Of a DNA stretch of 64,000 nt, positions 26,462 through 64,000 are shown one piece after another. Location: positions 1,274,627 to 1,338,626 of the forward strand of contig MU004230.1 of NCBI GenBank assembly GCA_010405405.1, in the 5' to 3' direction. The notes below the pieces were generated by a model. That model made no database searches. It had not been told where the DNA came from and saw only the letters and a program-made list of their open reading frames with translations. The stretch comes from Microthyrium microscopicum (Eukaryota). The translations under genes and the position numbers were made by a program. Every line of letters begins with the position of its first letter. The first letter of the stretch is position 1.

Positions 26462-27400
26462 AGAATTGAGAGACATCGAATGCAAATGTTTCGTTTCTCT
26501 TTCCGCCATCTACGGATATAACCAACCTGAGATCCATTTTTATCCAACTGAACGCGCACTTTTTAATCTATGGAATACTTCTAGAAGTTGCTATTTCTGG
26601 CCGACTCTGCAACTTCTACGGAACATTTTGCCAACTCACTATGATGCCACATTATGCAGAATTACCTGGACAACTTGAAGGCCGTATCCAATGCCCTGTT
26701 CTGATTCTGGGGTTTATTTTTATCAACTGTTCAATCTTGTTGTATCACCACAATTTCCTTTACCCAACGGCCAGCGGCCGCAATCATGGGACTGTACCAC
26801 AAAATTGAGAAGGATATAGGATTCGTTATCAAGATCAATATTTCAGTTATCTCATTAAAGGGTCTACCCCGACCCGTCACATGGTGAGACATTCAGTGGT
26901 GATAAGGAACAGGCGGGTTATACAAGCTCGAGCAAGCAGCTCTTCCAAGCTTCAGATCTTCAATTGATCCAAAGCACATTTGTAAGAGTACCCCAAGCTG
27001 TTGTGGCCAATAGACTTGTGGCAACAATATAGCTTAAAGGACAAATCCACCCACCCCTGCTGGCCACAAAGATGCCAAGGCCCTGTCTTATGGAAACATC
27101 CGAGATGCAGGAGACTTTATGGATGTGGCTGGCAGCCAGCAGACCCATCAAACGACGGATCGTCCCTATCGACGTTTTCACGCCGAGGCGTGCAATATAT
27201 GCTCTGGAGCTTTGCCTCACAGTCCAGCGTTGATTCTTGAACATCATGTCTATCATGTCTATCATACGATCCTTGAAGAGGTCGAAGATCTGGACTTACC
27301 ACGATCAATCATTTCAATCCGGTAACTAAAGTTCTAGACGGACGTCGATGCTAGCCTATTCAAGTCTTAAGATGTACTTTATAGGAGCTTAAAGTGAGTA

Positions 27401-27627
27401 CCGTTTTCTTCCTTTCAATTGACGCATTCTAGCGCCGGATTTTACGGTGATGGAAGCTTTTAGGCCTGCGCCAAAAGGGGCAAAAGGGGGTATCTAAGCT
27501 CTTTAAAGGGACAACTTAAGAGACTTTGTAGCGAGTTGTTTATAAAAGTAGGGGTACGAAAGCCAAATAAGCCACCAATTCGGTCAAGCCCCGCGCTAGA
27601 ATGCGTCAATTGAAAGGAAGAAAACGG
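27401..27627. mobile_element. 227-bp MITE of the Tc1/mariner-pogo type
   Basis: Perfect 35-bp TIR CCGTTTTCTTCCTTTCAATTGACGCATTCTAGCGC at both ends, flanked by TA (27399-27400 and 27628-27629). No coding capacity. Confidence 0.9.
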
Positions 27628-28092
27628 TAGGCTCCATGCATCAGCAATGCATAGGACAACAAGAAGGCAATGCAGCCCTGGTCTATCCCGCCACTGCTCA
27701 ATTCCCGGTCCAGTTCCTATTTCTCTCATTCTTACAGGTTCTTATTGCTAGTAAAGTTGAAATCGCACGGACGCTGCATACTTAATATCTTACGCAGTGG
27801 TAGCTGCACTCACAGCCCATGCCCTGAATGGAGCTCAGTGCACTGATATCATACAACAATATGGACGGGTTGGCGCAATTGCAAGAAGCCAGCATGTTCC
27901 AGTATCATAACATGAAGTATAGTGTCTTGTCCGGGGCATACACTTGAGCTCTTTATAATTCGGATCGGATCCGCTCCAAGATCGGTATCTCGAATCAGTA
28001 TCAAAATCACCACCACAATATTACACTCTTTTCAAAAATATCCTTCACGTACAACTTAACCTATTGTCCTGGTTTGCTTTCGGATTGAAGAG

Positions 28093-43986: not shown

Positions 43987-44772
43987 CTACCTTCCTTGCC
44001 TACTGCTCTGTCCCTCCGGCAGCATATGTCTTATATACTCCACCATCATCTTCGTCGACACCGTATTCCACGTCCCTCTCAATTTCATCCTCCTCTCTAC
44101 CCGATCAACCTCCTTCATGCCCTTGGTATCCTTCACCTTCTCTCCCCCATACACACCCCTTACCACGCGGTCCACCAACTGCTGCCGATACGGCTTCGGC
44201 ACTGGCGTAAAATCGACCTTGACTGCCGGAACCGTCTTTTTAAACTGCCAACTCAGTCGTGCTGCCGCATCCACTGCCTTCTCCTGCGCCAAAGCCACGG
44301 CCCGTAACTTCTCGTCCTCGTCTCGAAAGCGCATTACGCGGCCGTACCGCAGATTGCGCGCGTTTAGAGCGTCGAAGCCGATGCTTGTATCTTCGCGGCG
44401 CGCTAGGTTGGCCATGGCGGACTCGAGGGTTGCGCGCCGTGCAGTGGGTGTGCTGGAGGCCGTTGCTAGGTGGTTTGTGATGAGGGATTTGGCGGATAGG
44501 CGAGTTGGTATTGGCAGGGGTGTTGAGAGGAGGGTTGGATCGGCTGGTGTGAGGGCAGTTTCGTCGGTTGGTGCTGAGTTCAAGGCAAGCTGGGCCTTCT
44601 CCCTGGCATAAGTGGCTTTGAGCTCGGCTTCATGCTCGAGAGCTTCCTTGAGGGTGACGAGCTCCCAGAAGGTTCGGTGTTGGGGAGTTCTGGCTCTGAA
44701 GTAGGACTGGGATGGACGGAGGAGTGTGGCAGTGGGCCGGGAGCTACGGCGGAGGAGATGTTGTCGCTCCAT
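43987..44772 (-). CDS. Hypothetical basic protein with probable mitochondrial presequence
   Basis: 261-aa intronless ORF with coding-like composition. The N-terminus is rich in Arg/Ser/Leu (MERQHLLRRSSRPTATLLRPSQSYFRARTPQHRTF). Confidence 0.7.
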   Translation of the reverse strand: MERQHLLRRSSRPTATLLRPSQSYFRARTPQHRTFWELVTLKEALEHEAELKATYAREKAQLALNSAPTDETALTPADPTLLSTPLPIPTRLSAKSLITNHLATASSTPTARRATLESAMANLARREDTSIGFDALNARNLRYGRVMRFRDEDEKLRAVALAQEKAVDAAARLSWQFKKTVPAVKVDFTPVPKPYRQQLVDRVVRGVYGGEKVKDTKGMKEVDRVERRMKLRGTWNTVSTKMMVEYIRHMLPEGQSSRQGR

Positions 44773-45095
44773 TGCGGCTTAATGGCGTGTTTGGAGATTG
44801 ATGGGATTTATCTGCAATGGGTTGAAGTTGGAGATTTTTCTGGAGATGCTTGGCGTCTAGCTCATTGAGATGACTAAGCCAGAGCCCCCTTATATATGAC
44901 GGCTCATAACGGCCACCCTGGCCAGTTTAGCAAAACTAAAAAGTATAAAGCTCTATATTTTATGAATGTAATATTCCTATACTTATTTCCCTATTTTAGC
45001 GCTTTAGATAAATTCTAAAAGGGATGTTCAAAAATTACATATTTTTTAATACCTAAATTAAGGTAATTAGTAATAATAACTATGATATAGTAATA

Positions 45096-45345
45096 GTATA
45101 GCTATGTTAGTAGGCAAGGTATAGCTATGTTAGTAGGTAAGGTATAGCTATGTTAGTAGGAAAGGGTAAGATAAGTATAGCTACGTTAATAGGTGAGGTA
45201 TAGCTGCGTTAGTAGGTAAGGTATAGCTACGTTAGTAGGTGAGGTATAGCTATATTAGTAGGTAAGGCGCTAAGAAAGATATAGCTATATTAATAATAAA
45301 GGTAACGAGAAAGATGTAGCTATATTAATAAGAAAGGTGTAGCTA
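45096..45345. repeat. Subterminal tandem array of a ~23-bp unit (GTATAGCTAYGTTAGTAGGTRAG), about 7 clear and 3 degenerate copies
   Basis: Directly visible just inside the left TIR. Confidence 0.9.
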
Positions 45346-45599
45346 TATATTATTAGTTAAGGTAATATAATTAGTATATATATAGATTAGTAATAGAAAT
45401 TAATTAAGAAAGGCTTTTGATTCTTAATAATATACTAATAGGTAGAAGTTAACTATTATTATAGAGTTTAATATAAAGTATAGTATTTCTCTTTTCTTCT
45501 TTAGTATTAGTTATATCTCTTAGGTAACTTTTATTATGTTAAATGCTTATATTGATTTAATTATATACTAAGTCTTTATTAAGAGCTTAGTATTAACTA

Positions 45600-47030
45600 A
45601 AGGCTATATTAATGCTAAGGTTTGTAAATAGCTTCTTAATAAATATAGTATAGAGGTTTTTATTTAAACTATTCGTTAAAGAATTAATAAATAGAGGATT
45701 TAAAGAAGAACTATATAGCTTAATAAAAATTTAAAGAACGTAATAAAGGCTTTATTTTATGTCTTTAATAGTAATGAAAGAGAGATAATATATATCTTAT
45801 AAGATTATAGGTATAAATTTTCTTAAAGGACTTTATGATAATATTATTAGAGGCTTAGAATATCTTGTTAGTAAGACTATAAATTATATTAAAAGTTCTA
45901 TAAAGTATACTTTAAGAATAATTATAATATAATTTAGCGTAAGCTTTAATAATCCTATCTTAGTGTTATAAATTATGAATATTATATATTAGTAATAAGA
46001 ATTAGAGCCTAGGGACGTAATATATTTCTAAGAAATGTTTATTTTATTTAATAATAATTAGATTTAGAAGCTACTGCTACTTAATAGAAATAAGTATATT
46101 AAAAATAGGGTGAATATAAAGTTAAAGGTTTAGATTATATTTAGTCTATTAATAGGTATAATAAACTAAAGTAATTTAGCTTTAAGATTTATAGCTATAT
46201 TAATGCCTACTTAAGATATCTTAACTATTATAATATTAGTATATTAAATAAGATGAGTATTAGCTATCTCTACTAATACTTAGATTATTTAGAAGGTAGG
46301 CTAATTTAGTTATAATTTATTTAATTAGACTAAGGTAGCAAAATAGTTATGTTTGCTAATGCTTATTATAAATTCTTGCTTGCTTATAAACCTAACCTTT
46401 ATTTTAAGGACTATTTTCTATATAGGATAAGTATTACTAATTAATAGATAGAACGTTAGTAGGAAAATCTTAGTGGATCTATACTAAATAAATAGAAAGT
46501 AAGTTTTATCTTATTAAAGTAATACTAATATATACTTTAAAAGATATACTAATTCTTTATAGGAGTTTTTTAAGTAGTTTTAAAGAGATAGTAAATTCTC
46601 GTAAGATAGACTTACTAATTGTATTGTAATATTAGCTATATTTATATTTATTTTGTAAAATATTATTACTAGATACGTTTATAACTAGAATAATTATAAG
46701 TTAACTAATACTAAGAAAAGGCGCTCTAATACTATTAATAGAAAGCTATAGTACTTATATAATTATTCTTAGAACGTAGAGAAGGTTAGCTTACTAATTA
46801 ATCTTAAACTTATTTATGTAGTAAAGTAACAAGTTAGTAACTAGAATAAAGATGCCTATCTACCTAAAGAAACTCTTTAATAGTGCTAATAAGAACTATA
46901 GTAGATGGGGTTTAATCCCTTTATAGACTCTTTTAGTAATACTTAAGATTGCTAGAGAAAGATTAATCTATTTAGAGGTATTTACTTAACTTTAAGGAGC
47001 GTATTAAATAAATATATCCTTAGTAAATAG
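45600..47030 (+). pseudogene. RIP-degraded IS3EU/integrase-core DDE transposase (limits approximate)
   Basis: De-RIPed readings: EYKVKGPDYIWSIDG(H/Y)DKLKQFGFEIYGCIDAYSRY (~46110-46230), FIRSDRGGETVMFADAH (~46316-46366), YGTSTANQRIERWW (46421-46462) and WNNHK (~46686). This gives the D, D and E motifs in order. Confidence 0.85.
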
Positions 47031-50000
47031 TTACTAATTATGTATCTTCTAGTAATACTAAGTAGTAAAGAGAATTAGATTAAAGCTAATCTTAGTTAGC
47101 CTATTATAGTTATACTAGCTAATATAGAATAAGATAAGGTTAAGAAATTTATTAAAGTAAGGATAGCTAAATTCTACATTATATTAGATATAGTAGAGGT
47201 AGACTACTTTTATATAAAGTAAGCTCTGTATTCTAATGACGAATCTTAGCTTACTTACTATAATACTTTACTATAAATAACGCTTCTTTAGTAGATAAAT
47301 AATATATTTCTTAACTACTCTTTATTTAAGAAACTTAATTCTATTATATAAGAACTTGCTCTTTACTAATATATATATTAAGTTAATACTTATTTGCTTC
47401 TTTAATATTTATACTCTTATATTTCTAATTTTATATTCGTTATATTAGCTTTAGGCCTCCTTTATAGACCTACTTAGATACTTAACTCTTAACTAAAAGG
47501 TATACTATATTTAGCTTGTTAGGATATAGATATAGCTTAGTAAAGAAATTATAATTAGAATATAGGTGTAGAGTGTCCTTCTTACTTTTAAGAAACTAGT
47601 ATTCGCTAGGTAAAGAGAGTACCTTAATTAGTAGGAGGGTAGTTAAAAGAGAATTCTTAACCCTAGGTTAGACTACTACTAGAACTAGTAGTAATTAAAG
47701 AAGAAACTATTATTTATAATATTAAGTTATATCTATTGCCTACTTAATAAGTTTTTATAGTTAAGATTAAATAATTTGGGTTTATAAGTAGTAGCCCTAT
47801 ATCCTTACTTAATTTGTATATTTAAATAGAGGATTATTAGGATAGAGAAGAAGATACGCTAATATAAATAGAGTCTAAAGCTCTTATTACTTAGTTAGCT
47901 CCTTACCTAAACTTAGTATTAGTTAGGAACGTAAAGATAGGTTAGCTTTAAAGTATTAAAGATAATCTAAGTTTAATATATTAAAGCGCTAAAAAGACTT
48001 AAACTAAATAGCCTTATAATTTTAATACTTAGAAGCTTTTTTATAATAATATACTACTAGATAGTAAAGAGATATTCTAAAAAGTAGCCTAAATAAGTAA
48101 GTTTGCTAACTTACTAATAGAATATAGACTATTAGCTAATAAGAGCTAGGTTTTTTTAGTGGTATTATCTATTAGAGTAATATAAATAGCATTTTGTACT
48201 TTATTATAAAGATCTTATTTAAGTATCTAGACTAGGATATTATTAAATAGTTTTAGGCGTTATATAATAAGGGTAAAGGTATAAAGTTCTATATCTTTCT
48301 TTATAACGACGTAGAGGATATTTAAGGAGGTATAGATAAAATTAAAAAGAAAGAACTAAGATTTAATAAGGTTAGTAGAATATATAATGAACCTTAGAGC
48401 TTAGAAGATTTTTTTAAGAATGGGCTATTTAAGCTAAAAAAGGAAAAGGGGATGAGTAAAGTATAGTTTAATATTAACCTTATCTTTTAGATTATAAGAA
48501 CAAATTATAAGACTTAGGTAGATTACTATGAGTAACTTAATAACTTAGAAACCTTAGTTTTAAGAGGATGAGAATAGCCTAGTAAAATAATACTAAGGCC
48601 TAGATACCTAGATATTATATTACTTATACTACTTTTAATTTAAAGTATTAAAAAGGAGGATAAGCTTAGTAGTGCTATTACTATAGTTGATTCTAATGCT
48701 TTTTAAAAGATTAAGAAAGAGTTTAAGCTAGCTATAATTAACCCTAAGGCCTTTCTTAACTTAATTAGATAAAGTAATGGTAAAGATAAAGTTTCTAGTG
48801 AATCTAGTAATTCTAGTAATGATAGAGAGCTACTAAAGGATAAAGAGTTGCTAAAGGGAACTAAAGGTAATAATAACTATAAACTATACCTAGAGCTAAT
48901 AAAGAAAACTCTTACTAAAAAGAAAAAGAAAGGTAATGATGTAGAAAAGTTAAAGCTATAAATTGATAAGGCGCTTTATAAACGTAACGCTTCTAATACT
49001 AAGCTGTTTAATTAAACCTTTTAAAAGTATAGAAAAGGGCTAGTAGTAAGCCTAGAATAAGAATAGGAGGAAGTAGAGGCCTAATAGGTTATATAGCTTA
49101 CTGCTAAGAAAGGTCTATAAGGCGGCTTAGGTAGGAAAGAAAAAAAAGGACGTAGTAGTATTAGTAGGCGAGGTAGGCATAGTAGTATTACTAGTAGAAA
49201 CTAATTTGTTTTTATATTTCTTTACTAGTACTCTTTAGTCTTTCCTTTAGGTAGTTTTACTTTATATTGCTAATAATATTATTCTTAGGTCTTATCTTTA
49301 TTTTAATTTGTAGTATAATAACGCTGCTAGGTAAAGCTTACTAAAAGAAGATAGGCCTAGCGTCTAGCTAGTTAAATAGAATAATATTAGTTTATAAATA
49401 TAAAATAGCCTCTTACTAATTATTTAAAGTGCTAGAGTACTTTAGCCTTAAGCCTTAGCCTTTATTAGGAATACTAACTAAGAATACTATATAAATAGTA
49501 ATGCTATCCTTAAGAAGTAGACTATACTAGGTTATGCTAGACTTATTAAAAATTAGCTACTTTTTATTATTAGATATAGTATTAATTTCTTTAATTCTTT
49601 AAAAGAAATTAATTATTTATTATTTCTTTAAGACTTTAAGTAGAGAGGATTAAGCCTTTACGCTGCCTATATAGGCTTTAACTTATATAGAATTAAATAG
49701 TTAGGAAGGACTAACGCCCTATTCTAAATAAGGGCTACGTAATTTAATAATATATCCTTATAAGGCTATATATATATTGCTAAATAATAAGTAACTAGCT
49801 TATTAAATTGTAATGCCTTATCTTTATATTACTAAACTAAGCTCCTCTAAATCCTTAAGTAGTTTATTAACTTATAGATTAAACTTAAGTAAACGTTAGT
49901 AAGTATAGTAATTAATATAACTTAGTAAAAAGAAGTTATAAAGTAGGATATAAAAAACTAGCATATAATAATAAAAAAAGTGAATAATAAGCTTAAAGGT

Positions 50001-53000
50001 AAGTAATATATAATATTTTTATAAACACGTTAGAAATAGAACTTAAATTAATAACTAAATTAATTAAAAGCTATACTAAACTAAGAATCTAAATACTAGG
50101 GAGTTATTAGTTAAGTGTTAATATAATTCTATAAAAAAATTAGTTATGTTTCTATTTAATAATATTAACTACTTACTAGGAAATGTAATAATAGTAGTTA
50201 AGCTCTAACTCTAATTCTAAAAAGACTTTTGTAGCCTATTAGTCTATAGAGGAGTTATAGTCTTGTTTAAGATAGATATAATATTAGTTAGTAGAAAATA
50301 ACTTAAGGAGAGTTAATAAAGTTGATTATTAGGCCATTAGGTACTTAAGGGTATAGATAGTAAGCTCTTTAATATTTAGACTATATCTTTTTAAGACTCT
50401 CTAATTAGGAGTAACTTTATTTTTTTTCTTATACGTAATATAGTTATTTATATCCTTATTATTAAATTTATAATAGCGTTTTAATAACCTCTTACTATTA
50501 TACTTATAAAGAGGGTAGCCTTTATTAAAGTTAACCTTCTAAACTAATTACTTATTCTTTCCTTATTCTTTCTTAATCTTTACTCTATTTATCTTTTTTA
50601 AAGCTCTTAAAGATATATTAATTTTTTTAGCGTTATTTAAAATATAAATAAGCTAGTAGTACTCTCTCTATTTAGTACTATCTATTTAAATAAAACTTAC
50701 CTTAGCTTTGCTTATACTTTTAAGAATTTTTCTTACTTGCTTATATAATCTTTATAGTTTACCTTAAAAGCGTATTAATAATATTAATATACCCTTACCT
50801 TTTAGAAGATTTAAGTCGCTAAACTTGACTAATAAGCCTATTATATTATTATTATAATCTATATATATCTTTATCTTCTTTACTTTTAAACGTGCCTTAA
50901 AAATATTTAACTTCTCTTTGCTATCTATATAGCGCTAAAGGTTCTTATAGAAGGGCTCTAGGTAAGATTCTTTAATTTAATATTATATTATATTAATTTA
51001 TATCTAGTTGTTAGTATTAAAGATTTAATTAAATCTATAACCTTTAGAGTAAATATTATTAAGATAATATATAGGACGAAATAAAGCTTATAATTTCCTA
51101 GCTACTTCTTAGTAAACTAAGAGAGTAGCTAGGAATGTATAAGCTTTATTTATTTTAAGGACTTTTTAGCTAAATTCTTTTATATTAAAATATCTTATAA
51201 AATAGTAACTTTAACTATAGAGTAAGATCTAGAGAAAGTTATACCTATATTAACTTATAATTTTAATTTATCCTTCGTCTTAGATAATATACTACTAAAA
51301 GGTATACTATACTAAAAAAGGATTAAATATAACTTATATATATTTCTTTTAGTATTTTTAAGTCTTTATCTTTTAATATTAGACCCTAACTACCTCCTAG
51401 GTAAACTAAGAGAATAATTAGAGTCTAATATAGCTCTAGAGGAGCTAATACCTACCTAAATTAGGATTTTTATTAGTTTAATATTAAGTTAATATTCTTT
51501 TTAATAGTAGGAGGAAGTAGATAAATTCTTACCTATTAGTTATCTTATTGCTAATATATATTTCTTCTATGTAAAGTATTATCTTAATTAATAATATAGT
51601 AGGTAGAAATCTAGCACTTTATTAGTATATATATAATAAAGTCCTTAATAAAGATATACTATTATATTAAATATAACTATCTTTCTAAAAAGAAGCACTA
51701 CTAGCTATATTTTAATTAATACTTATAATATATATCTAAGTTTATAATTAGCTTTAACCTATTAATATAATACTATCTTTATAGATAGAAGACTTTCTAA
51801 AAAGATAAAAGAACTAAATATATAATAAGCACTTAGAGTAGATAAAGTAGTATACTTACTTTGCTATTCTAAGCGTAGTAATAATAAGTAAAAGTAAATA
51901 TATTAAAAAATAACTACTAAAATAAATAGGGATACTAAAGGTAATCTTTACTATCTTGAAGTAAATTAGTAGATAATAGAGTAAATTTAGGACTTACTTA
52001 AAGCGTACGTTATGAGCTTAAATCTAGTAAAGGATAGCTTATAATATATTTTTTATATTTTTGTTTTTATTAGTTATAATATATAAAATATAAGCCTACT
52101 ATTCTATACTCCTAGATATCTTAAATAAATCCTTAGTTTATTCTTAAAGCTGTTAATTGTTACTAGGTAATAAGGTAGATAAATACATAAGCTTTATAAG
52201 TTAAAAGTTTAACTGCTTAGATTTTATAATATTCCTTTATAAATAAACGTAATGATTAGTTAGTAACTACTATAGCTAGTAATATATTTTTAAATATTAG
52301 CTAACTTTAAGTTACTCTTTTACTGCTTAATTGTCTAGCATTTAGATATATACTATAGTTACTACTTTTATTTACTAGGGATTAGTACTTTTTAATTTAA
52401 GAAGAACGCTACTTAAATAAAGATATTTAGAAGTAGTTAATTAGCTTACCTCTATATATTAATAAACTAATAATAATGTTTGTTAATATCTATTTACGTT
52501 ATTTAGTATATATTAATAGAAAGTATATCTTTACCTTTCTTATAATATACTACTAATTATATACTAAGTAATAAAGTTTCTCTATTTTTTTAGAGGCTTC
52601 TATATCTATATTCTTTTAATAATAATATTTACTACTTTAGATTAATAATATATACTAAGATTTCTATCTAAGGAAAAATTAGGTATATCTAAAGTGTAAC
52701 TACTAGCTAATAAATAATATAGTTAAATTATCTTAATAAGGCTACCTAAAGTCCTTACTTAATAAACTTAACCTTCCTAGAAAAGATATATACTTTATAC
52801 TAAAATAAAGAGTGTGACCTTTATTATACGTTAGGGCTAACGTATTAGATATATTTATTAATACTAGATTAAGGTAGGATTACTTTTTATAGATAAGAAT
52901 ACTCTTAGTAAAATTAAGAGCTTATAGTTTATATAGGTTAATAATCTTATAACCTATTTATACTATTTATATTATTCCTAATATAGTACTTATGCTTCCT

Positions 53001-55810
53001 AAGGATATAAGGTGCTATATAGAATTATTTCTATATATAATAATAATAAGGCTATAATAATATTAGAAAGTCTTTATATAGCTTAGTTTAAATAAAAATT
53101 ATAGTAGAAAATTATAGTAGTTAGCTTTGGTTTTTAGGCTTTACCTTCCTCTTAATTGCTAATTTATTAGTATTTAGTTTAGATAGTATTTAAATAGTAT
53201 ACTAGTTTTTAACTAACTTTCCCTTATATTATAAAATATAAGCTTTTTTAATATATAAAATAACCTAATTATTATACTCTAAACTAGAGTATAACTACTA
53301 TATAAGTATAATAGGTTATATAGAACTATAGCCTTAGAAGAGTATTATTAGTAAAATAGGTAAAGGAAGAATAAGATTAGACTTAAAAGGTATACTAGAA
53401 TTACTCTATTATAACTAGTAAGCCTATCTATAAGATAAAATTTCTAAATAAGAAGGTAATTAGTTATTATTAATAAGCCTACTATAGATAGTAGTCTATA
53501 GTAGGCTATAACTAATAAAGGGTAGTAATATTATTTATATTCTATATATAGTATCTCTAGGTAGTAAGTAGTTATAGTATTTAGTATAATTAAAATACTA
53601 ATTAATTAATAGTTAAAAACTACCTATATTACTATGAATTAACCTAGCATGATATAATATATTAATATAGAATGTATTAATATTAAAGATGTTAAGACTT
53701 TTTTTTAAAAGAAAAAAATTAATATAAAAAATACCTTACTATTTTAATCTTCTCTAGAAAGTATATTAGAGAAGGGTAACTAATGAAGTATAATAAGATA
53801 TCTTTAATAATAAATACTAAAGTATAAATAGTTATAAAAATTATTATAATATCGTTGCCCTAAAAGGGTCTTAATATTAATTAAGATCTACTAAGATACT
53901 CTTATAGTAATTTTACTAAGTATTAGTATAAATATACTACTTAATAAGCTTTATTATAGAAAGCTTTACTTGCCTAAGTAATACGTAGTATTAAATAATA
54001 CTACTTAGTAATAGAAAGGCTTTATAGCTATCCTAGCTAGTTAATACCTATATATTTAGAAAACTAGACTAAGTTATAGAGATAGGTTAGATTAGTAATC
54101 TCTACTAGTTTTAGCTGCCTTAAAGCTAAGTAATTATTAAATAGTACTTTAAAAAGTAACTATAAGTTATTCTTTTTATTTTACTAAAATAAATATATAT
54201 AATAAGTAAAATAATATCTTAATTTCTTAATAATATCTTAATCCCTTATATAATAAGTAAAATAATATCTTAATTCCTTATATAAGGCATCTCTTTGCGA
54301 AGGGTAGATACTTTAACGTATTCTAATAAGTTGTTTATAAAACGCGCGTTATAAGTAAAATACTAAGTATTTTATTATAAAGTATCTTACTATACGTATT
54401 CTCTTAAGTAGTCTCTAGAGAGGAATAGTATAGTAAGCTTTATAATTAATTTTATATACGTAGAAGTATATTATATTAGAGAGTATAGGATTAAGAGTAG
54501 AGAGAGCCTTTTAGCTAAGAAGGCTTACTCTATAGTAGTAGGACGTTATTCTTAAAGTAATACTTACTATTAAATTATTATAGTAAGATTGCGTAGGTAT
54601 AAAACTACTATGTAGTATAAGCTTAATATTATTATAGATTCTACGTAATTTTTAATATTACGTATTAGAATTTACTAAGATTTTACCTCTTTTTTTTTAT
54701 AAAAGAGCTAAAAATCTATTATTCTTTTACTTACTTAGCTCTTAATATAGCTATAGAGAAACTTAGTAAGACTTAGATATACGTACTACTTATTATATAA
54801 ATTAGCTTAGCGCTACTTAGATATAATAGCTAGATTAGAGTTATAGTCTTCCTCTTACTTAATGCTAAAAAATCTTACTTTATTAAACCTTCTTTATTAT
54901 AATTCTATTGCTTAATTATATTAGTTATGCTTAATTTAATAAGGGAATATAAACTTATATATAATTTAGCCTTATAAGATTATTATATAGTAGTGCTAAC
55001 TATCTTAGTACTAATCTTATGCTATTTCTTTACTTTTTTTATATTTTTATAAGTATAGTGTTCTATAATAGTAGGCTAGCCCCTTAGATATTTAAGTATA
55101 GATATATTTTATAAGATAATTAGTATTTATAAGGAATATTTACGCCTTTAGCATTAGTAGTTCTACTAATTAGTAAGCTAAATAGTATATATAATGGTTT
55201 AGTATATAAGCTAAGAAATATAGGCTTGCTAAAACGTAACTTTACTTTATATAATATAAATAGAGAAGTCTAAAATACTTTATATTAACGTCTTAAAGCT
55301 TGCGTAATTATATTAAAAGCTAGAAATTACTTTTAAGGATATAAATTAGTAGTAGAAGAGCATTAGAAGACGTTATAGCTAAAAGGATAGAAGTTTTTAG
55401 CGACTTAGACTTACTAAAAGTTAGTAAAGTAGTTATAAGTAAAAAGGATAACGCGCTAGAATAATATTATTTAGTAAAGGATTATACCCTTTTCGCTATT
55501 AAGATATAACGCCTAATCTAAAGAGACAATATATAAAGGAATAACTTAAGAACCTATAAAAGAGATAATACCCTAAAAGAGATATTATAGCTAAGGCTTA
55601 CCTATAAGCTAATTTAGTAAGGAACTACTATTACTAAGCTTTATTAAACTTTACTATAGTTGTAAATCTATAACTTTGCTTTTATTCTTTTAAGAGAGGA
55701 GCCCTATAGTGCTAGCTCTAATTAAAACCCTTATGCAAAGTTATTTTATTTATTAAAGCTATTTTAAGGAAGATATTATAAGTATAGTTTTCTTAAAGAA
55801 TATTCTCTTA

Positions 55811-56078
55811 CTAAATTTAGTAAGCTTTTTTACGAACTAATATCTTTACCTATAATATATCCCTATAACTATACTAAAATCTATTTATAACTTATAGCCT
55901 TTAACCTATAAGAATATCTTTTAGAGGCGCTTTTCCCTAAATTTAGTAAGCTTCTTTATAAACTAATATCTTTATTTGTAATATACCCCTATAACTATAC
56001 TAAAATCTACTTATAGCTTATAGCCTTTAACCTATAAGAATATCTTCTAAAGGCGCTTCTTCCTAAATTTAGTAAGCC
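55811..56078. repeat. 126-bp tandem duplication (2 full copies plus a partial third) next to the right TIR
   Basis: CTAAATTTAGTAAGC recurs at 55811, 55937 and 56063, and the intervening sequences align. Confidence 0.9.
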
Positions 56079-56480
56079 TTTAACTAATATCTATATTAGT
56101 TATTACTAATTATCTTAATTTAGGTATTAAAAAATACGTGATTTTTAAATATCCCTTTTAGAATTTATTTAAAGCGCTAAAATAGGAAAATAGGTGTAGG
56201 AATATTGCATTTATAAAATATAGATATTTGGACCTTTTGGTTTTGGTGAAGTGGCTAGGGTGGCCGTTATGAGCCGTCATATTATATCAATGTTGACATC
56301 AAGAGAGCCAAGAAAACCAAGACCACTCGACAATCCCATCATAACAAAATTTTGCCACAGAATTCCAGCAAACTTCGAGCAGAATTAGGAAGCCGTTTGT
56401 TATTCCAACTTTTCCCCTGAGTATACCTATCAAAAGTCCATTGCGTCGCGTCCAGACTCTGAGGGCGCCTTCACTTCACC

Positions 56481-56696
56481 ATGCTTCGACGACCTCCAAC
56501 CGCCATTACTTTGACTACAGAGGACATTATCAAATACGAAGAAGTCCGATCGAAACTCGCCGTCCAGAAAATGGAGAACATCAAGCGCTTTGAGCAGAGT
56601 AGTCAAGCAACTCATACTTCGACAGCGACTCAAAAGTCCAGAGCTGGCAACGCCAACGACCGGATCATGGGCACGGGGAATGGTAGCGCGAACTGA
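56481..56696 (+). CDS. CDC26: Anaphase-promoting complex subunit Cdc26
   Basis: N-terminus MLRRPPTAITLTTEDIIKYEE matches the APC_CDC26 signature. The protein is 71 aa and ends in DRIMG. Confidence 0.85.
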   Translation: MLRRPPTAITLTTEDIIKYEEVRSKLAVQKMENIKRFEQSSQATHTSTATQKSRAGNANDRIMGTGNGSAN

Positions 56697-56980
56697 AAAT
56701 TTCTCCTAACTATCCTTACCTCAAATACTCAATAACGGTCGGACGGTATCTTCTTCTGATGACACAAAGAAAAGAGCCCGGGCATTGGTGCAGAACATGG
56801 TTGGACTAAAATCATTCCTTGCTTGCTACCCAGGAACGCGCACTACCTCCTTTGCATTCCTACACGTAGCTACTAAACAAGTACGCTCTGTCTCAATCAC
56901 AATTCAGTTTATGAAATTATTATTGCTCAGAGTCTATGTGCACCGAATTGTTGCTGGCTTGACGACATCACCACGGCATC

Positions 56981-59602
56981 ATGTGCCAACAATCGATATA
57001 TCAACGTTGTTTTTTCAATCTCATATGGTCGATCGCTTGCATAATACATTTTTCTCCCGTGGTTACCTCGGAAGATACATACTTTCCTGTAGAGAAGGTT
57101 GAAAAGCTCTTGGAGAAAAGAGCCGGATCGCCATGGTGGTTCGCAAACATCGCGCGGCATGGAACCGTACCTTTCAATTCCGATCCCAACTACGTCCTAT
57201 ATCGCAATGTGGCGGACTATGGAGCTGTCGGTAAGTACCCATTTTACAAATGTAATGAACCAACTGACTAGGTTGATAGGTGATGGGCACGCCAACGATA
57301 CACAAGCTTTCCTCGATGCCTTCTTCCTTGGCCCGCGATGCGTCGGACAATTTGATCCTGTCAATCCGTGTCAATCTTCGACGATACAGCCTGCAATTGT
57401 CTATGTTCCCCCTGGAACTTACTTTCTTACTAATCGAATTATCATGCCATACAACTCGATTATCATTGGTGATGCACTCGATATGCCAACTTTAAAAGCT
57501 TCTGCCGACTTCAATGATATTGCCATATTGGATCCAGATCCGTATGTTTCAGGAAACGACCAATGGTATGCTAATCAGAACAACTTTTTCCGACAAGTGC
57601 GGAATCTCATCCTCGATACCACCAATACAGGAGTCTCATCTACTGTTGCTGGCGTTCATTGGCAGGTGGCCCAAGCGACCTCTTTGCAAAATCTAGTCTT
57701 CAACATGATTGTGAGTAAAGACGAGAACAACAAACAGCAGGGAATCTTTATGGAAAACGGGTCTGGTGGGTTTATGAGAGATCTCATCTTCAATGGGGGA
57801 GGCATAGGATTCTTTCTTGGGTAAGAATATAAAGATTTCTGATTATGTCATATGCTGAGAACAACAGGAATCAACAGTTCACAAGCACAAATCTGACTTT
57901 CAACAACTGCTACAAGGGAATCAGGATGAATCAAAATTGGTTGTGGTCATTCAAAGATATAACTTTCAATGGTTGTACAATCGGCATTGATATGGTTCAG
58001 GCTGGCGATCCATCCATTGGTCCAGGCTCTCCGTCTCTTGGTTCTGCCATCCTCGCGGACTCGACATTCATCAATACTGATACAGGAATCGTGAGTACAT
58101 ACAATTGCTCATATTCAAAACCAGCTTCGGCTGGCACCTTGATCGTCGACAACGTCGATTTCACAGGCGCTGGTATTGCGATTCGCAACCCTAACGGCAC
58201 CGTAATCCTGCCCGGAGGTTCAGTTGTGGCTGGATTTATGGCAGGAAATGTCTATTCGGCACAATATGCTCAGAGATTTTTCCCCAATCATGACAATCAG
58301 ACCTGCTATGTTCCCCAGGCCATACCTAGCTGTTACCAAGAAGCATATACACCCCCGACTAAACCTGCAGGCTTACTGGGCCCCAATGGTAAAGTCTTCG
58401 ATCGAGCCAAGCCAGCTTACGACGACTTCACCGTAAGTCAATTCATATCAGCGAAGGTCGACTTTGGTTGTGCGGGTGATGGTGTCGCTGATGACTCTGA
58501 CTGCCTGCAAAATCTCTTCAATTCAGTTAATTTTAACCAAGTTGCATACATTGATGGTGGAGCATACGTTGTCACAAAACCGATTTTCATCAAACCGAAT
58601 ATCAGGATCATGGGCGAAGGTTGGCCTAAGATCATGATCAAGGGCGGCTCGTTCTGGGGAGACAAGGCAAATCCAGAAGTGGCATTCACAGTTGGCAACA
58701 AGGGAGACATCGGCAAACTCGAGATGCAGGACATCGTTTTTGAGACCCAAGGTCCAACACCGGGTGCTATTGTGATGGAGTGGAATCTGGAAGAGGATGC
58801 ACAAGGTAGCGCTGGTATGTGGGATGTTCACTGGCGGATGGGCGGCTCAGCTGGGACTTTGATGCAAGAGAACTGCATAAAGACCCCTACTGAGGTCTTG
58901 AGTGTAGCGGACCCAAACTGCTTTACCGCTTTCCTGCTTTTGCATATCACCGAGACCGCGTCATTGTACATGGAAAACAACTGGGGCTGGGTTGCTGATC
59001 ACGAGCTTGACCAACTTCCCAATGATCAACTCAATATCTGGAATGGGAGAGGACTGCTCATCGAGTCTGTAAAGCCAGTGTGGGTGGTTGGCGGCTCATT
59101 TGAGCATTCACAACTCTACAACTACCAGGTGGCGAACGCGAAGAACGTTTACATGAGCCACATACAGTCGGAAACAGCGTAAGTAAGCCTGAACTTTCAT
59201 GACCACAAGCTAATGATTCAAAATAGATATATGCAAGATAACCCAATTGCGACTCTAGCATATCCACCGCAAGCCAGTTGGGATGACCCTGATTTCAGTT
59301 TCTGCCAAGGTTTGACAAAGTGCGTCAAAACTTTTGGATTGCGAATATACAACAGCACCTACGTTTACATTTACGGGGCTGGATTGTATTCGTTCTTCCA
59401 AAATTACGATTCCAGTTGTTTGGTTCCGCATAGCTGTCAGACCAATGCCGCAAGTATCGAGCTGTCGGAAGCGGTGTACGTTTATGGCTTGTATTCAGTT
59501 GGCCACGATAATATGATGTTAATGGATCAAACGCCGTTGGTGCCTCAGGGAGACAACTCGAACACGTTCGGTGAAAGCATTGCGCTGTTTGAGTATGAAT
59601 GA
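56981..59602 (+). CDS. Secreted GH55 exo-beta-1,3-glucanase, 4 exons
   Basis: Signal-like N-terminus and a Kex2-type LEKR, then YRNVADYGAV/GDG, NQNNFFRQVRN, HWQVAQATSLQN, GIFMENGSGGF, WGWVADH and QSETAY. Introns at about 57232-57279, 57821-57868 and 59180-59225. Confidence 0.95.
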
Positions 59603-60337: not shown

Positions 60338-63300
60338 ATGAGGTTTCCGACGGCCTACTGGCCTCTTGGCCCAGGTCTCCTCTTGTCACTCTTTACTCAA
60401 GGTGCGCTAGCAATTCCTCCTTCCGGTCAGTCATTTTCTTCTTGTTATCCTGCATCAGCATGTCAGGGCCAAATGGTTGCGGGCGGCATGCCCGACTGCC
60501 TGCTAGGCGGCGGAGACAGATATTGTTCTTTCGGCTACTACCAGACTTGTACTGCATTGGGAATTCTCGCAGGATTCAGCAACATTCCCATATGCTCTAC
60601 AACTTCATCATCACGATTTTCTTCATCAGTTGTCGCGGCGCCATCCTCGATCTCGGCAGTGATCTCCAGCTCATCGCCATCAACGCCATCTGCAACCAGT
60701 CTCTCACCAAGATCATCATCGGCTCCCTCGTCAGCACCAGCTATAACAAGCTCGCCTAGTTTCAGGAGCTCTTCGTCGTTGGCTCCCATCTCAAATTCCG
60801 CTGGAATTTCCAGTCTATCACCGGATGCTGGTGGGGGTCTTGAACTAGGAGTTTCCGTGGGACTAGGAGCGTCGGGCATAGGGGTAGGAGTTTCCCTCGG
60901 TTTGGGAGTCTCTGCGGCACCGCCGGTTTCAAGTTCGCCCAGCTATAGAAGCTCCTCCTCGCTGCCGTCCATTCCGGGCTCCGCTGTGATGTCAAGTTCA
61001 TCATCATCGGATACTGGTGGTGGCATCGGTATAGGAGTATCGATAGGGTTAGGAGGTTCTGCCTCGCCCGCTGTCACGATCTCTCCCAGCTACAGAAGCT
61101 CTTCTCCCATCTCTACCGCAATATCAATTTTATCATCAGATGCTGGTAGTGGCCTCGGACTTGGAGTCTCCTTGGGATTAGGAGTTTCCTTGGGTGTAGG
61201 CGTTTCCTTGGGAGTAGGAGGCTCCGCATCGCCCGCAGTCACAAGCTCGCCCATAAGCCCTTCTCCGTTGGCATCTATTCCAAGTCCCGCTGCAATATCA
61301 CTTTCTTCGTCAGATGCTGGTATTGGCCTTGGAATAGGATTATCAATAGGAATAGGAGCAGGGGCTTCACCCGTCATTACGAGCTCGCTCAGCTACAGAA
61401 GTTCTTCTCCAGTGGCATCTATTCCAAGCTCCGCTGCAATATCACTTTCATCATCGGATGCTGGTAGTGGCTTTGGAATAGGAGTATCAATAGGAGTAGG
61501 AGCCGGCGCTTCACCCGCCATTACCAGCTCGATCAGCAACATGAGTCCTTCGCCATTAGCGTCCAATCCGAGCTCCGGTGCAGTATCCAGCGTGTCATCG
61601 GATGCCGGAGGTGGCCTTGGCCTAGGAGTTTCTGTGCCTGGTCTAGGAGTTTCCGTAGGGATAGGAGCAGGAATCTCGGGGGGAGTATCTTTAGGAGTAG
61701 GGGTTGGTGTTAGCCTTGGGGCCAACTCCATAGTCTCTAGTTCTATCGATCTCAACTCTATTCTTCCTAGTTCTATTGCTCTTAGCCCAGTCGGATTTAG
61801 TTCTCTCGGTGTGAGCTCTATTGCCGTCAGTTCTATCATGTTTAGTTCTGTCGCCACTGAGTCTCTCGCCCTGAGTTCTCTCGATATCAGTCCTATCGTC
61901 CTCAATCCCGTTGTTTCCAGTTCTGCTGTTCCTAGTTCTACGGCTCTTAGTTCTGTCGACGTCGGTTCTGTCAGCATCAGTTCCGTCGACGTCAGTCCCA
62001 CCCTTCCAAGTTCTGTTGCTATTGGTTCTATTAGCCTTACTTCTGTCAACACTGCTTTGTCGGCCTCTAGTTCTCCGATTCCCAACAATATCACCCCTAA
62101 CATTATCCCGAACATCGTCACTAACATTATCCCTAACATCATCCCCAATATCATCTCCAATATCATTCCCGGTCCCGTTTCTAGTAATCCGATTTCACTC
62201 AGCTCGAATCCCGCGGGCGAAAGCTCAATCAGTTCCAATTCTTTGGATACGAATTCTATCCCCCCTATCTCAATGCTCTCCAACATTCTTTCACTGCCGT
62301 CAATCTCGGTATCTAGTCTGTCGATCCCATCGATTGAGCTTTCAAGTTTTCCATTACCCTCAATCACGTTGCCAAGTCTCACCGATTCTTTAAGTCTGTC
62401 TTTGCCCTCAATCAGCATATCGAGCATTTCAAAGTCATCTAGCTACATGCTAGGTGATACAAGTCCATCAATCTCGGAATATTCAATGTCTGCATCATCA
62501 GACACTGAGTCATTGGTGCCGACATCATCAGAAATGCAATCATCAATTTCAATACCATCAACCTTTACATTATCAATACCTGCAACATCAATCGGGCTGT
62601 CGTTGTCTTCGCTATCAATCACAGCTGGAATATCGTTACCAACGACGGTGATAAATTCTCAATTGATTTCATCAGCGTTCAGCTCACCTTCACCATCACC
62701 TATTCTCAACAATATCATTCCTCACATTATCCCAAACATTATCCCGAACATTATCCCGAACATCGTTCATGGTCCCATCTTCAATAATCCAGCTTCGCCT
62801 TCTCCGAGCCCAAGCTCAACGGGTGGTAGCTCAGTTGAAGCAAGCTCGATCAATTCTATTTCCTCAACTGGGATGTCTGAAACATCTGTTTTGGCGTCTT
62901 CTCAATCCATTGTCTTAAGCTCTTCAAACCTGCCATCTGCGGATGGGTCGAGCCTTTCATTCTCATCTTCATCGGACGTTGTGCCTTCAATTGACTCAAA
63001 TAGCGAGTCAGCAACGTCAACCCTTCTATCAAACGCCGTCTCAGGCGCCAACACAGCTTCCTCAGTGGCCAGCGCTTCTGTCGATTCAAGTACAAGTCTT
63101 TCTGCAATAGTCCCTAGTTCCATTTCAGCCATGTTATCTGCACCAAGTTCTGCATTGGATCCAGCATCATTATCATTATCAGCCAGCGCTTTGATGAGTC
63201 CTTCACCAATTGCTTCGAATTCCTTCTCAACAATCGCATCGGCGACCGATTCAGCACTGACGATTTCAAATTCAGCAGTCTCCTCAGAACCATTCCCGTC

Positions 63301-64000
63301 ATCATCGGATACAATCGAATCACAGTCGGACTCGGCCTCCTCCGACTTGAGCTCCGAGGCGCCGTCCGGCTCTCAAATGATAACCACGCTTGGTTGGAAT
63401 ACTCTTGGATGTTATAAGGATATTCAGCCTACTCGGGCACTGGCGGAATTCACCCGTATTGGTACAATGGATCAAGAGCTATGCCAGTCGATTGCTAGTA
63501 CTTCTGCCATGAAGTGGGCTGCGGTTGAGTATGGAACTGAATGCTGGTTTGGAAGCACGATTGCCTTCACAATAACAGAAGACGACCCCGTTTCATGCTC
63601 ATTCCCCTGTGGTGGAAACAGCCTTGAAAGCTGTGGAGGTGGAAGTGTAATGAATCTCTTCTATCTTTCCACGCTACCACCAAGTTCGTCCTCAGCAATC
63701 TCTTCCTCGCATATAACATCTAGTGCACACTCTTCAGCAGCGTCATCCTCAGTTCATACAAGCTCACAAGCTGCAAGTCCATCACCGAGTATCAGTTCGC
63801 CTGTTTTGGCTCCTACATCTTCAGTAGCAAGTTCCTCAACAGCGAGTTCCTTAGCAGCAAGTTCTTCAGCAGCAAGTTCCTCGGCAGCAGGTTCATCATC
63901 AGCAGGTTCTTCGAGCTCGCCGATATCAAGTTCTTCCGCTGGGATTATGGCCTCGACCACTCAGTCAAGCAGTCTAGAATCATCAATGATCGCTAGTGAA
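60338..64000 (+). CDS. Giant secreted Ser-rich mucin-like protein with a WSC domain (partial, continues beyond the window)
   Basis: ATG at 60338 opens MRFPTAYWPLGPGLLLSLFTQGALA (signal), then a 6-Cys segment and a very long Ser/Pro-rich region. A WSC domain lies at ~63388-63667 (GWNTLGCYKD..ELCQ..VEYGTECWFG..CSFPCGGNSLESCGG). The frame at the window end matches the start frame, so it is probably absent from the ORF track because no stop is reached. Confidence 0.88.
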   Translation, partial: MRFPTAYWPLGPGLLLSLFTQGALAIPPSGQSFSSCYPASACQGQMVAGGMPDCLLGGGDRYCSFGYYQTCTALGILAGFSNIPICSTTSSSRFSSSVVAAPSSISAVISSSSPSTPSATSLSPRSSSAPSSAPAITSSPSFRSSSSLAPISNSAGISSLSPDAGGGLELGVSVGLGASGIGVGVSLGLGVSAAPPVSSSPSYRSSSSLPSIPGSAVMSSSSSSDTGGGIGIGVSIGLGGSASPAVTISPSYRSSSPISTAISILSSDAGSGLGLGVSLGLGVSLGVGVSLGVGGSASPAVTSSPISPSPLASIPSPAAISLSSSDAGIGLGIGLSIGIGAGASPVITSSLSYRSSSPVASIPSSAAISLSSSDAGSGFGIGVSIGVGAGASPAITSSISNMSPSPLASNPSSGAVSSVSSDAGGGLGLGVSVPGLGVSVGIGAGISGGVSLGVGVGVSLGANSIVSSSIDLNSILPSSIALSPVGFSSLGVSSIAVSSIMFSSVATESLALSSLDISPIVLNPVVSSSAVPSSTALSSVDVGSVSISSVDVSPTLPSSVAIGSISLTSVNTALSASSSPIPNNITPNIIPNIVTNIIPNIIPNIISNIIPGPVSSNPISLSSNPAGESSISSNSLDTNSIPPISMLSNILSLPSISVSSLSIPSIELSSFPLPSITLPSLTDSLSLSLPSISISSISKSSSYMLGDTSPSISEYSMSASSDTESLVPTSSEMQSSISIPSTFTLSIPATSIGLSLSSLSITAGISLPTTVINSQLISSAFSSPSPSPILNNIIPHIIPNIIPNIIPNIVHGPIFNNPASPSPSPSSTGGSSVEASSINSISSTGMSETSVLASSQSIVLSSSNLPSADGSSLSFSSSSDVVPSIDSNSESATSTLLSNAVSGANTASSVASASVDSSTSLSAIVPSSISAMLSAPSSALDPASLSLSASALMSPSPIASNSFSTIASATDSALTISNSAVSSEPFPSSSDTIESQSDSASSDLSSEAPSGSQMITTLGWNTLGCYKDIQPTRALAEFTRIGTMDQELCQSIASTSAMKWAAVEYGTECWFGSTIAFTITEDDPVSCSFPCGGNSLESCGGGSVMNLFYLSTLPPSSSSAISSSHITSSAHSSAASSSVHTSSQAASPSPSISSPVLAPTSSVASSSTASSLAASSSAASSSAAGSSSAGSSSSPISSSSAGIMASTTQSSSLESSMIASE
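60735..61720 (+). repeat. Six imperfect coding repeats (SSDAGxGLGxGVSxG...PAxTSS) within the WSC protein
   Basis: A GATGCTGG-like anchor recurs near 60822, 61008, 61137, 61311, 61455 and 61599. Confidence 0.85.

Follow-up and report, generated by a model that had tools for sequence, protein, structure and literature searches.

A RIP-inactivated IS3EU/GingerRoot-type transposon of Microthyrium microscopicum with a 6.2-kb arm common to six co-resident lineages

What is the long AT-rich block that separates two genes on contig MU004230.1 of Microthyrium microscopicum, and how does a large part of it come to be nearly the same in elements whose ends and transposases differ? The block spans positions 44895-56281 (11,387 bp) of the 64,000-nucleotide stretch analysed here (the window, to which plain coordinates refer). 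An earlier note on this DNA described it as a full-length IS3EU-like transposon that has inverted repeats at its termini (TIRs), hidden under repeat-induced point mutation (RIP). The present analysis confirms a RIP-inactivated IS3EU/GingerRoot-type TIR DNA transposon with a DDE transposase. We consider it likely that it is a dead copy of one family, termed family A, and that its right 6.2 kb, the arm, spread between families by recombination before RIP inactivation.

The element starts with TATGACGG at 44895 and ends with CCGTCATA at 56281, and TTATA flanks each end as a target site duplication (TSD). Its terminal features are:

44890..44894, no strand: left TSD, TTATA, 5 bp (sequence and copy comparison)
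44895..45080, plus strand: left TIR, ~182-190 bp; its terminal ~55 bp are common to 12 copies that resemble miniature inverted-repeat transposable elements (MITEs)
45088..45337, plus strand: subterminal tandem repeats of 23-bp and 35-bp units, differing in copy number among copies
55811..56077, plus strand: subterminal tandem repeat on the right, made up of 2.1 copies of a 126-bp unit; the subtelomeric copies have ~94-bp arrays here
56096..56281, minus strand: right TIR, paired as an inverted repeat with the left end
56282..56286, no strand: right TSD, TTATA, 5 bp (sequence and copy comparison)

The inverted-repeat arms (44894-45083 and 56093-56282) measure 190 nt at 87% complementarity, where the earlier note had given ~182 bp, and transitions are the majority of mismatches over the first ~182 nt. 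The TAT...ATA termini and the 5-bp TTATA on both sides also stand as described, and the reading as a full-length element is supported. GC content is ~20-26% within the element versus 41-54% in the flanks. For the composite RIP index, 22/22 bins fully within the element lie between +1.0 and +2.1, and 7/8 other bins are negative. The list of open reading frames (ORFs) for 36000-64000 holds none of 90 aa or more within the element, and Rfam gave 0 matches. The proposed RIP cover is borne out by the GC drop, the RIP index and the transition excess among copies given below, and the element is indeed invisible to ORF calling, direct Pfam scans being likewise empty.

A search of the 37-Mb genome (G000) with the left TIR returned 35 matches, namely five pairs bounding elements of 11.4-11.7 kb, 12 pairs bounding elements of 554-1192 bp, and one solo end; the copy lists are lower bounds, several loci being partly masked. 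Collecting copies in this way, as the earlier note had proposed, shows that other TIR-bounded copies do exist (5 full and 12 short in total). TATGA..TCATA ends are found in 17/17 paired copies. A perfect 5-bp TSD is present in 5/5 long and 11/12 short copies (16/17); the duplicated sequences vary, and 0 extend to 6 bp. The suggestion of a TSD shorter than 6 bp is therefore supported, and the alternative of a 3-bp TAT duplication with ends 1 nt further out is refuted by the other four full copies, which show GTTCG, GGTTT, GTTGT and GTAGT next to identical element ends. Identity among the long copies is 89-92%, with 883-1137 transitions and 2-90 transversions per copy pair (963 and 2 between the window copy and the next one); such near-exclusive transitions are what RIP would be expected to leave. 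A max-GC comparison of 5 to ~20 copies reached a GC content of only ~30-37% and left most stops in place, because CpA/TpG sites are saturated in every copy compared. The 12 short copies have the terminal ~55 bp of family A and ~150-bp TIRs of their own, diverge from one another and mostly keep CpA/TpG; they may represent MITEs mobilised by the family-A transposase. A solo ~40-bp left end of family A lies at C10:944605 of the genome, with no partner in the flanks examined, and a double-length MITE of the family (C10:729924-731115) has extra sequence, an internal inverted repeat and a retained 5-bp TSD.

The transposase is read from the left part of the element:

45536..46498, plus strand: transposase exon 1, RIP-broken, with a Clr5/helix-turn-helix (HTH)-like N-terminus and the DDE core (profile E=8.1e-20, motif match)
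46499..46560, plus strand: putative intron of ~60 nt (frame shift)
46561..47220, plus strand: transposase exon 2, RIP-broken (coding-frame scores, profile E 7e-14)

When only C>T/G>A changes are reversed, four motif strings have one exact match each, at 46142, 46187, 46319 and 46421, ordered and in a single frame, with 0 matches in the reversed element as a control; the ordered integrase-core motifs of the earlier note are thus reproduced. The catalytic codons in exon 1 lie at ~46151 (D, now N), ~46328 (D) and ~46451 (E), and the first D is ~205 codons past the ATG at 45536, the range given for IS3EU being 100-300 residues from the start. A pattern search of metagenomes with the first motif gave at least 120 matches, 80 of them with flanking DNA, and 52 of these 80 loci have a stop-free ORF of at least 70 aa containing the motif. 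Intact relatives match PF24764 (rva_4) above cut-off in 9/9 tested and Clr5 in 4/9, one above cut-off. A profile from the relatives' cores finds the window copy (E=8.1e-20) and matches all 12 element sequences tested, with reversed controls at E>1; the test is partly circular, because the homologs were fished with the earlier note's own motif, although the matches also span the N-terminus and, in another frame, the second exon. Taken together, the Clr5 matches of the intact relatives are weak. ORFs of the closest intact relatives likewise stop shortly past a W-R-V motif, near the putative intron. IS3EU transposases have no N-terminal HHCC motif, and its absence here was judged from the relatives' Clr5/HTH matches; RIP erases H and C in the window copy. 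Matches of a RIP-aware profile scan were confined to the transposase, the TIR (common to the MITE loci) and a host protein, P0001, discussed below; its noise amounted to two stray matches at E~1e-3, one each from the forward sequences and the reversed control.

IS3EU elements are characterised by TA..TA termini, TIRs, an IS3-like DDE core and a TSD of usually 6 bp (Kojima and Bao, 2023; PMC10045372). The motif series W-x-I-D-G-x-D-K-L / G-C-I-D-x-x-S-R / R-x-D-x-G-x-E / S-T-x-N-Q-R-I-E-x-x-W agrees with that of the Repbase IS3EU alignment in the supplement of that paper. Termini, TIRs, motif series and profile match together sustain the earlier assignment to an IS3EU-type DDE transposon; because the source says "usually" 6 bp, the 5-bp TSD is taken as a variant and membership is kept. 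Ginger1/Ginger2 (TG..CA ends) and IS481EU (TSD of ~4, 15 or 25 bp) do not fit the TA..TA ends and the 5-bp TSD. Intact metagenome relatives with a visible TSD have 6 bp in three cases and 5 bp in two, and three more TIR-bounded loci show no TSD. Among the metagenome loci, L166 holds an IS3EU-type element that is intact, 6.4 kb long and flanked by a 5-bp TSD; it carries a 952-aa ORF without a Pfam match (L166:4537-7392, minus strand), and a histone-fold ORF adjoins an IS3EU-type transposase at L115:4310-4954.

The segment on which the main question turns lies to the right of these genes:

49676..55900, no strand: passenger segment common to six IS3EU-type lineages; left edge graded over ~49500-50230, right edge within tandem repeats

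This arm matches many other loci of the genome whose ends are unlike those of family A. Lineages with their own matched TIR pairs are six, A, B, B', C, D and E. Lineage B has five long copies and, taken with its variant B' and including two MITEs, shows a 6-bp TSD in 6/8 and a 7-bp TSD in 2/8; lineage C has two copies, one with a 5-bp TSD and one with a 6-bp TSD with one mismatch, and lineages D and E have a 6-bp TSD each. The genome search for the transposase gave 15 matches and, with lineage D, leads to 15 elements, with the arm present in 15/15. Transversions, which RIP does not generate, were used as the measure of divergence. For the transposase core, comparisons among A, B and C give 125-163 per 1000 positions and B versus B' gives 71-88, as compared to 0.7-4.6 between lineages at 51345-54200. 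Along the element the sliding rate between lineages is 19-35% in the left 5 kb, drops to 0-2% in the arm and rises again to 13-31% in the final bin. The left edge of the arm has 6-9% transversions at 49700-50230, fainter homology further left, and neither TSD nor TIR; the right edge sits in the tandem repeats that adjoin the TIR.

Within the arm, lineage-diagnostic variants (at 51094, a 2-bp indel at ~53135 and a 6-bp deletion at ~50570) indicate that arm alleles mostly travelled with their own family. Patchwork sites that go against the family grouping were also seen, as 53015/53077/53079 join copies A1-A3 with subtelomeric copies and the tract 51481-51512 joins A5 with E. The scarcity of indels at 50230-54200 was considered as evidence for coding and not accepted, because recent homogenisation explains it equally. 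Several sister elements are swollen by nested insertions with their TSDs intact, at C12:34556-49858 (15 kb), C5:2106964-2162539 (56 kb), C5:2514979-2541789 (27 kb) and C6:873645-900116 (26 kb) of the genome.

The content of the arm points to the host genome and to chromosome ends:

50240..51400, minus strand: ORF3, a possible RIP-broken frame; coding signal mainly 50295-51200
50357..50526, minus strand: 170-bp piece with homology to residues 170-225 of P0001 (128 identical positions; the differences comprise 29 of RIP type, 7 reverse transitions and 6 transversions)
50739..50790, minus strand: piece with homology to the Cys-motif region (about residues 142-158) of P0001 (E 0.012; score 85 versus a shuffled maximum of 58.5)
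51343..56020, no strand: distal arm, also a subtelomeric repeat, found near 9 contig ends in a single polarity

A profile of the putative frame 51399-50242 had a single match among 1.84 billion proteins (E=3e-7). This match, P0001, is encoded in the M. microscopicum genome itself, by one intact gene (C1:3421261-3422250). The two pieces are collinear in the arm, with the Cys-motif piece ~210 nt upstream of the 170-bp piece and in another frame. P0002, a distant full-length homolog of P0001, retains the Cys motif, and P0001 contains two internal repeats, of which the 170-bp piece spans one; capture from host to element is hence the simpler direction, and we infer that the pieces were acquired in this way. 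Genome matches of the N-terminal 285 codons of ORF3 were limited to RIPed copies, a word-based homolog search with the ORF3 alignment gave none, a comparison with solved structures gave only E>0.7, and P0001 had no usable match in Atlas. Outside the P0001 pieces no complete gene was identified in the arm.

Subtelomeric copies of the arm are tandem in places and once directly abut telomere repeats. The proximal part (49700-51340) is common to the lineages and absent from these copies, and no transposase match was found in the stretches of them examined, which are masked in part. Their terminus is of IS3EU type, decayed and similar to that of lineage B, and they are the most divergent arm versions (3.5-10.6 per 1000). 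This may suggest that they are broken right arms amplified with the subtelomere. Telomere repeats abut truncated arm copies at different points (C4:1-1886 of the genome; window position 52216 in run X1), which suggests that chromosome ends were healed within the arm.

Based on this dataset, we propose the following course of events. The transposase would bind the TIRs and act by cut-and-paste with a 5-nt staggered cut, one base under that of most sister lineages, and the family-A transposase would also mobilise MITEs in trans. The arm would pick up pieces of a host gene and pass among at least six co-resident IS3EU-type lineages via homologous recombination or gap-repair template switching, with partly homologous sequence behind the second gene (ORF2, below) and the subterminal repeats as possible exchange points. 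Each recombinant lineage would go on transposing with its own TIRs and transposase, and the arm transfer would precede each family's last burst. A truncated right arm of one lineage may have given rise to the subtelomeric repeat, and in later sexual cycles RIP would have saturated CpA/TpG in all long copies while short MITEs largely escaped.

Instead of having been exchanged, the arm could have been inherited from a common ancestor and homogenised after insertion by ectopic gene conversion from the high-copy subtelomeric pool, the low-copy left halves having diverged past conversion. Homology that persists for several hundred bases left of the arm, with the 6-9% transversions at 49700-50230, would fit this, as would the short patchwork tracts common to single copies of different lineages and the abundance of the distal part at chromosome ends. 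However, most variants and indels of the arm follow family lines, which places most of the homogenisation before each family's last burst; the proximal part is equally shared yet absent from the subtelomeric copies, and the latter, being the most divergent, fit poorly as a donor. Common descent with conversion thus appears unlikely. That the 6.2-kb segment is a mobile element in its own right, targeting one place in IS3EU elements, is suggested by its identical relative position in every lineage and its partial occurrence elsewhere, near contig ends. Yet neither edge has a TSD or TIR, the edges are graded and differ by lineage pair, 0 arm-less full elements are seen among 15, and the subtelomeric copies, by their lineage-B-like decayed terminus, look like broken right arms; we regard an independent element as very unlikely. 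An assembly artefact from mis-joined or averaged repeats must be considered as well, given that the read-derived contigs come from short reads and none spans the element, but it is hardly credible: independent RIP sites set the copies 8-10% apart, TIRs and flank TSDs match in every element, and for the window copy both junctions and two pieces of the interior are reproduced without difference in read-derived contigs. As to the superfamily itself, the fixed 5-bp TSD, set against usually 6 bp in IS3EU and 6-8 bp in GingerRoot, might speak for IS481EU, Ginger1/2 or an unnamed 5-bp-TSD lineage. The TA..TA ends and motif series are those of Repbase IS3EU, though, sister lineages about equally distant from each other in the transposase core make 6-7-bp TSDs, and intact relatives include both 5-bp (two) and 6-bp (three) cases, which renders another superfamily highly improbable.

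Several points weigh against the favoured account. Exchange between active elements is not cleanly separable from later gene conversion, and the directions of host-gene transfer and of the subtelomere link are themselves deduced. No intact copy of the element was seen, and no empty site or allele appeared in the read-derived contigs. The transposase escaped direct Pfam scans (0/6 read-through frames, 0/4 transposase-region frames), a search of the genome with PF24764 and a word-based homolog search with the transposase alignment, and the profile test that did find it carries the circularity mentioned above. Finally, ORF2 gave no significant alignment with second-gene profiles from the metagenome relatives. 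It appears doubtful, furthermore, that the arm is a selected selfish passenger with working genes, partly derived from the host Cys-motif gene and aiding its carriers, for example against silencing. If true, such an arm would have swept all IS3EU lineages by inter-family recombination and seeded subtelomeres without transposing itself.

The second gene just mentioned is placed as follows:

47450..49150, plus strand: ORF2, probably a second gene; it looks spliced and its tail is charged and KxE-rich (coding-frame scores, layout)

Its coding-frame score is strong at 48100-49000 and weak at 47450-47950, and in position and strand it agrees with the gene that comes second in the closest relatives from metagenomes. 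A likeness by eye to the second protein of L113/L155 was not counted, as profile scans gave no support, and an Atlas search with the L113 second protein returned no usable match. TET/JBP and alpha-kinase profiles built from metagenome ORFs had no match in the element, where RIP may hide distant homologs. The left ~4.5 kb is probably filled by the transposase and this second gene. The earlier description as multi-gene is hence only partly supported, by the transposase and the probable ORF2; the right 6.2 kb is shared with five other lineages and with subtelomeres and has host-gene pieces without an identifiable complete gene.

The insertion lies in a short intergenic region, which it divides, between divergent genes at 43987-44778 (minus strand) and 56326-59602 (plus strand). 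The left ORF starts ~120 bp from the element, and the right gene, directly downstream, is pectate-lyase-fold glucanase-like. Contigs from DNA runs, a possible source of the assembly, match both element junctions exactly. A joint skipping the element (44949-56241, run X5) was rejected as an empty allele; it retains both TIR tips and fits a MITE. Contigs of the same run, taken by guess to be RNA, cover both flanking genes with no mismatch, and in the right gene they reveal two GT-AG introns; the missing coverage of the element's interior in this run was given no weight. Elsewhere in the window, a separate RIP-like AT-rich block of ~2.8 kb (12690-15500, GC ~22%) has no IS3EU-profile match, 231 bp at 27399-27629 with 61-nt inverted arms (84%) are possibly a small MITE or hairpin, and the minus strand of 60500-63900 has long low-complexity ORFs with 144-bp, 18-bp, 15-bp and 12-bp repeats.

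The IS3EU superfamily is poorly described, and a family A with a fixed 5-bp TSD beside sister lineages of 6-7 bp in one genome, with closely related transposases, widens its definition. With this natural series, intact relatives could be used to test what determines TSD length. The multi-kb block is quantified here as crossing TIR families, between which the transposases show about fifty times more difference. This contradicts the assumption of repeat libraries that each family forms a single unit between its TIRs, and it links the arm of a DNA transposon to subtelomere build-up. These findings are bounded in that every long copy found is dead and the arm genes are unreadable. In the literature searched (Repbase Reports and most subscription journals lay outside it) neither an IS3EU family with a 5-bp TSD nor a single multi-kb arm in all IS3EU lineages of a genome is reported. 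Precedents for each ingredient are described, namely gene capture in GingerRoot, passive TET/JBP transfer, and inter-clade recombination in Mutator. Length and gene count are likewise not new, with published fungal IS3EU, REP9/Styx and GingerRoot being comparable.

Among the known relatives, IS3EU and GingerRoot (PMC10045372) agree with the element in TA..TA termini, TIRs and the DDE motif series, their second encoded protein having a probable counterpart in ORF2, and differ from it in the usual TSD (6 bp versus the fixed 5 bp of family A) and in the 6.2-kb cross-lineage arm found here. GingerRoot of Selaginella, with a mean length of 8.6-8.9 kb, has host-gene fragments in 22/77 elements (84-1654 bp, 79-98% identity; PMC6839031) and thus resembles it in length and content; its TSD is 6 bp, in a few cases 7-8 bp, none of 5 bp is reported in the available text, and one arm across TIR families is not described there. 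TET+ IS3EU of Pucciniales and Tuber (Kojima, 2025; PMC12730594) are likewise long fungal IS3EU elements of 8.3-12.9 kb with extra genes. The Puccinia/Tuber elements in the 15 rows considered, of 27 IS3EU rows in Table S1, measure 8,337-12,933 bp, and 5/15 exceed 11.4 kb, so that the earlier "unusually long" does not hold. Their ends are TAYGG..CCRTA with a 6-bp TSD, and their cargo comprises TET/JBP and alpha-kinase genes, the TET/JBP gene sitting between the transposase and alpha-kinase genes. Passenger genes, which have neither their own ends nor their own TSDs, pass passively between these transposon lineages, and DNA identity is above 70% in only one transfer (PMC12730594). Here, by contrast, the ends are TATGA..TCATA with a 5-bp TSD, the TET and alpha-kinase profiles had no match, and the 6-kb block is ~99.7% alike, RIP aside. 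TET/JBP or Tet-like 2OG-Fe(II) ORFs do occur beside IS3EU-type transposases at metagenome loci L142, L186, L123, L129, L130 and L152, and L165 carries an alpha-kinase; these loci and L165 fit the published TET+ layout. REP9/Styx of Zymoseptoria is an active, multi-gene IS3EU-related TIR element of a Dothideomycete, with RIPed copies in sister species; it measures 7.9 kb, with four genes including DUF3716 genes, a 43-bp TIR and a 6-bp TSD in 33/36 copies (PMC8232023, PMC10853768). The present element differs by its TIR of ~186 bp, its 5-bp TSD and the death of all long copies, and the four matches of PF12511 (DUF3716) in the genome include 0 within IS3EU-type elements. Finally, maize Mutator elements with divergent TIRs, members of another superfamily, swap internal sequence and have TIR symmetry restored (PMC10401008); the shuffled parts in maize are transposase genes and single TIRs, whereas in M. 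microscopicum the arm is held in common and the pairing of TIR and transposase is kept.

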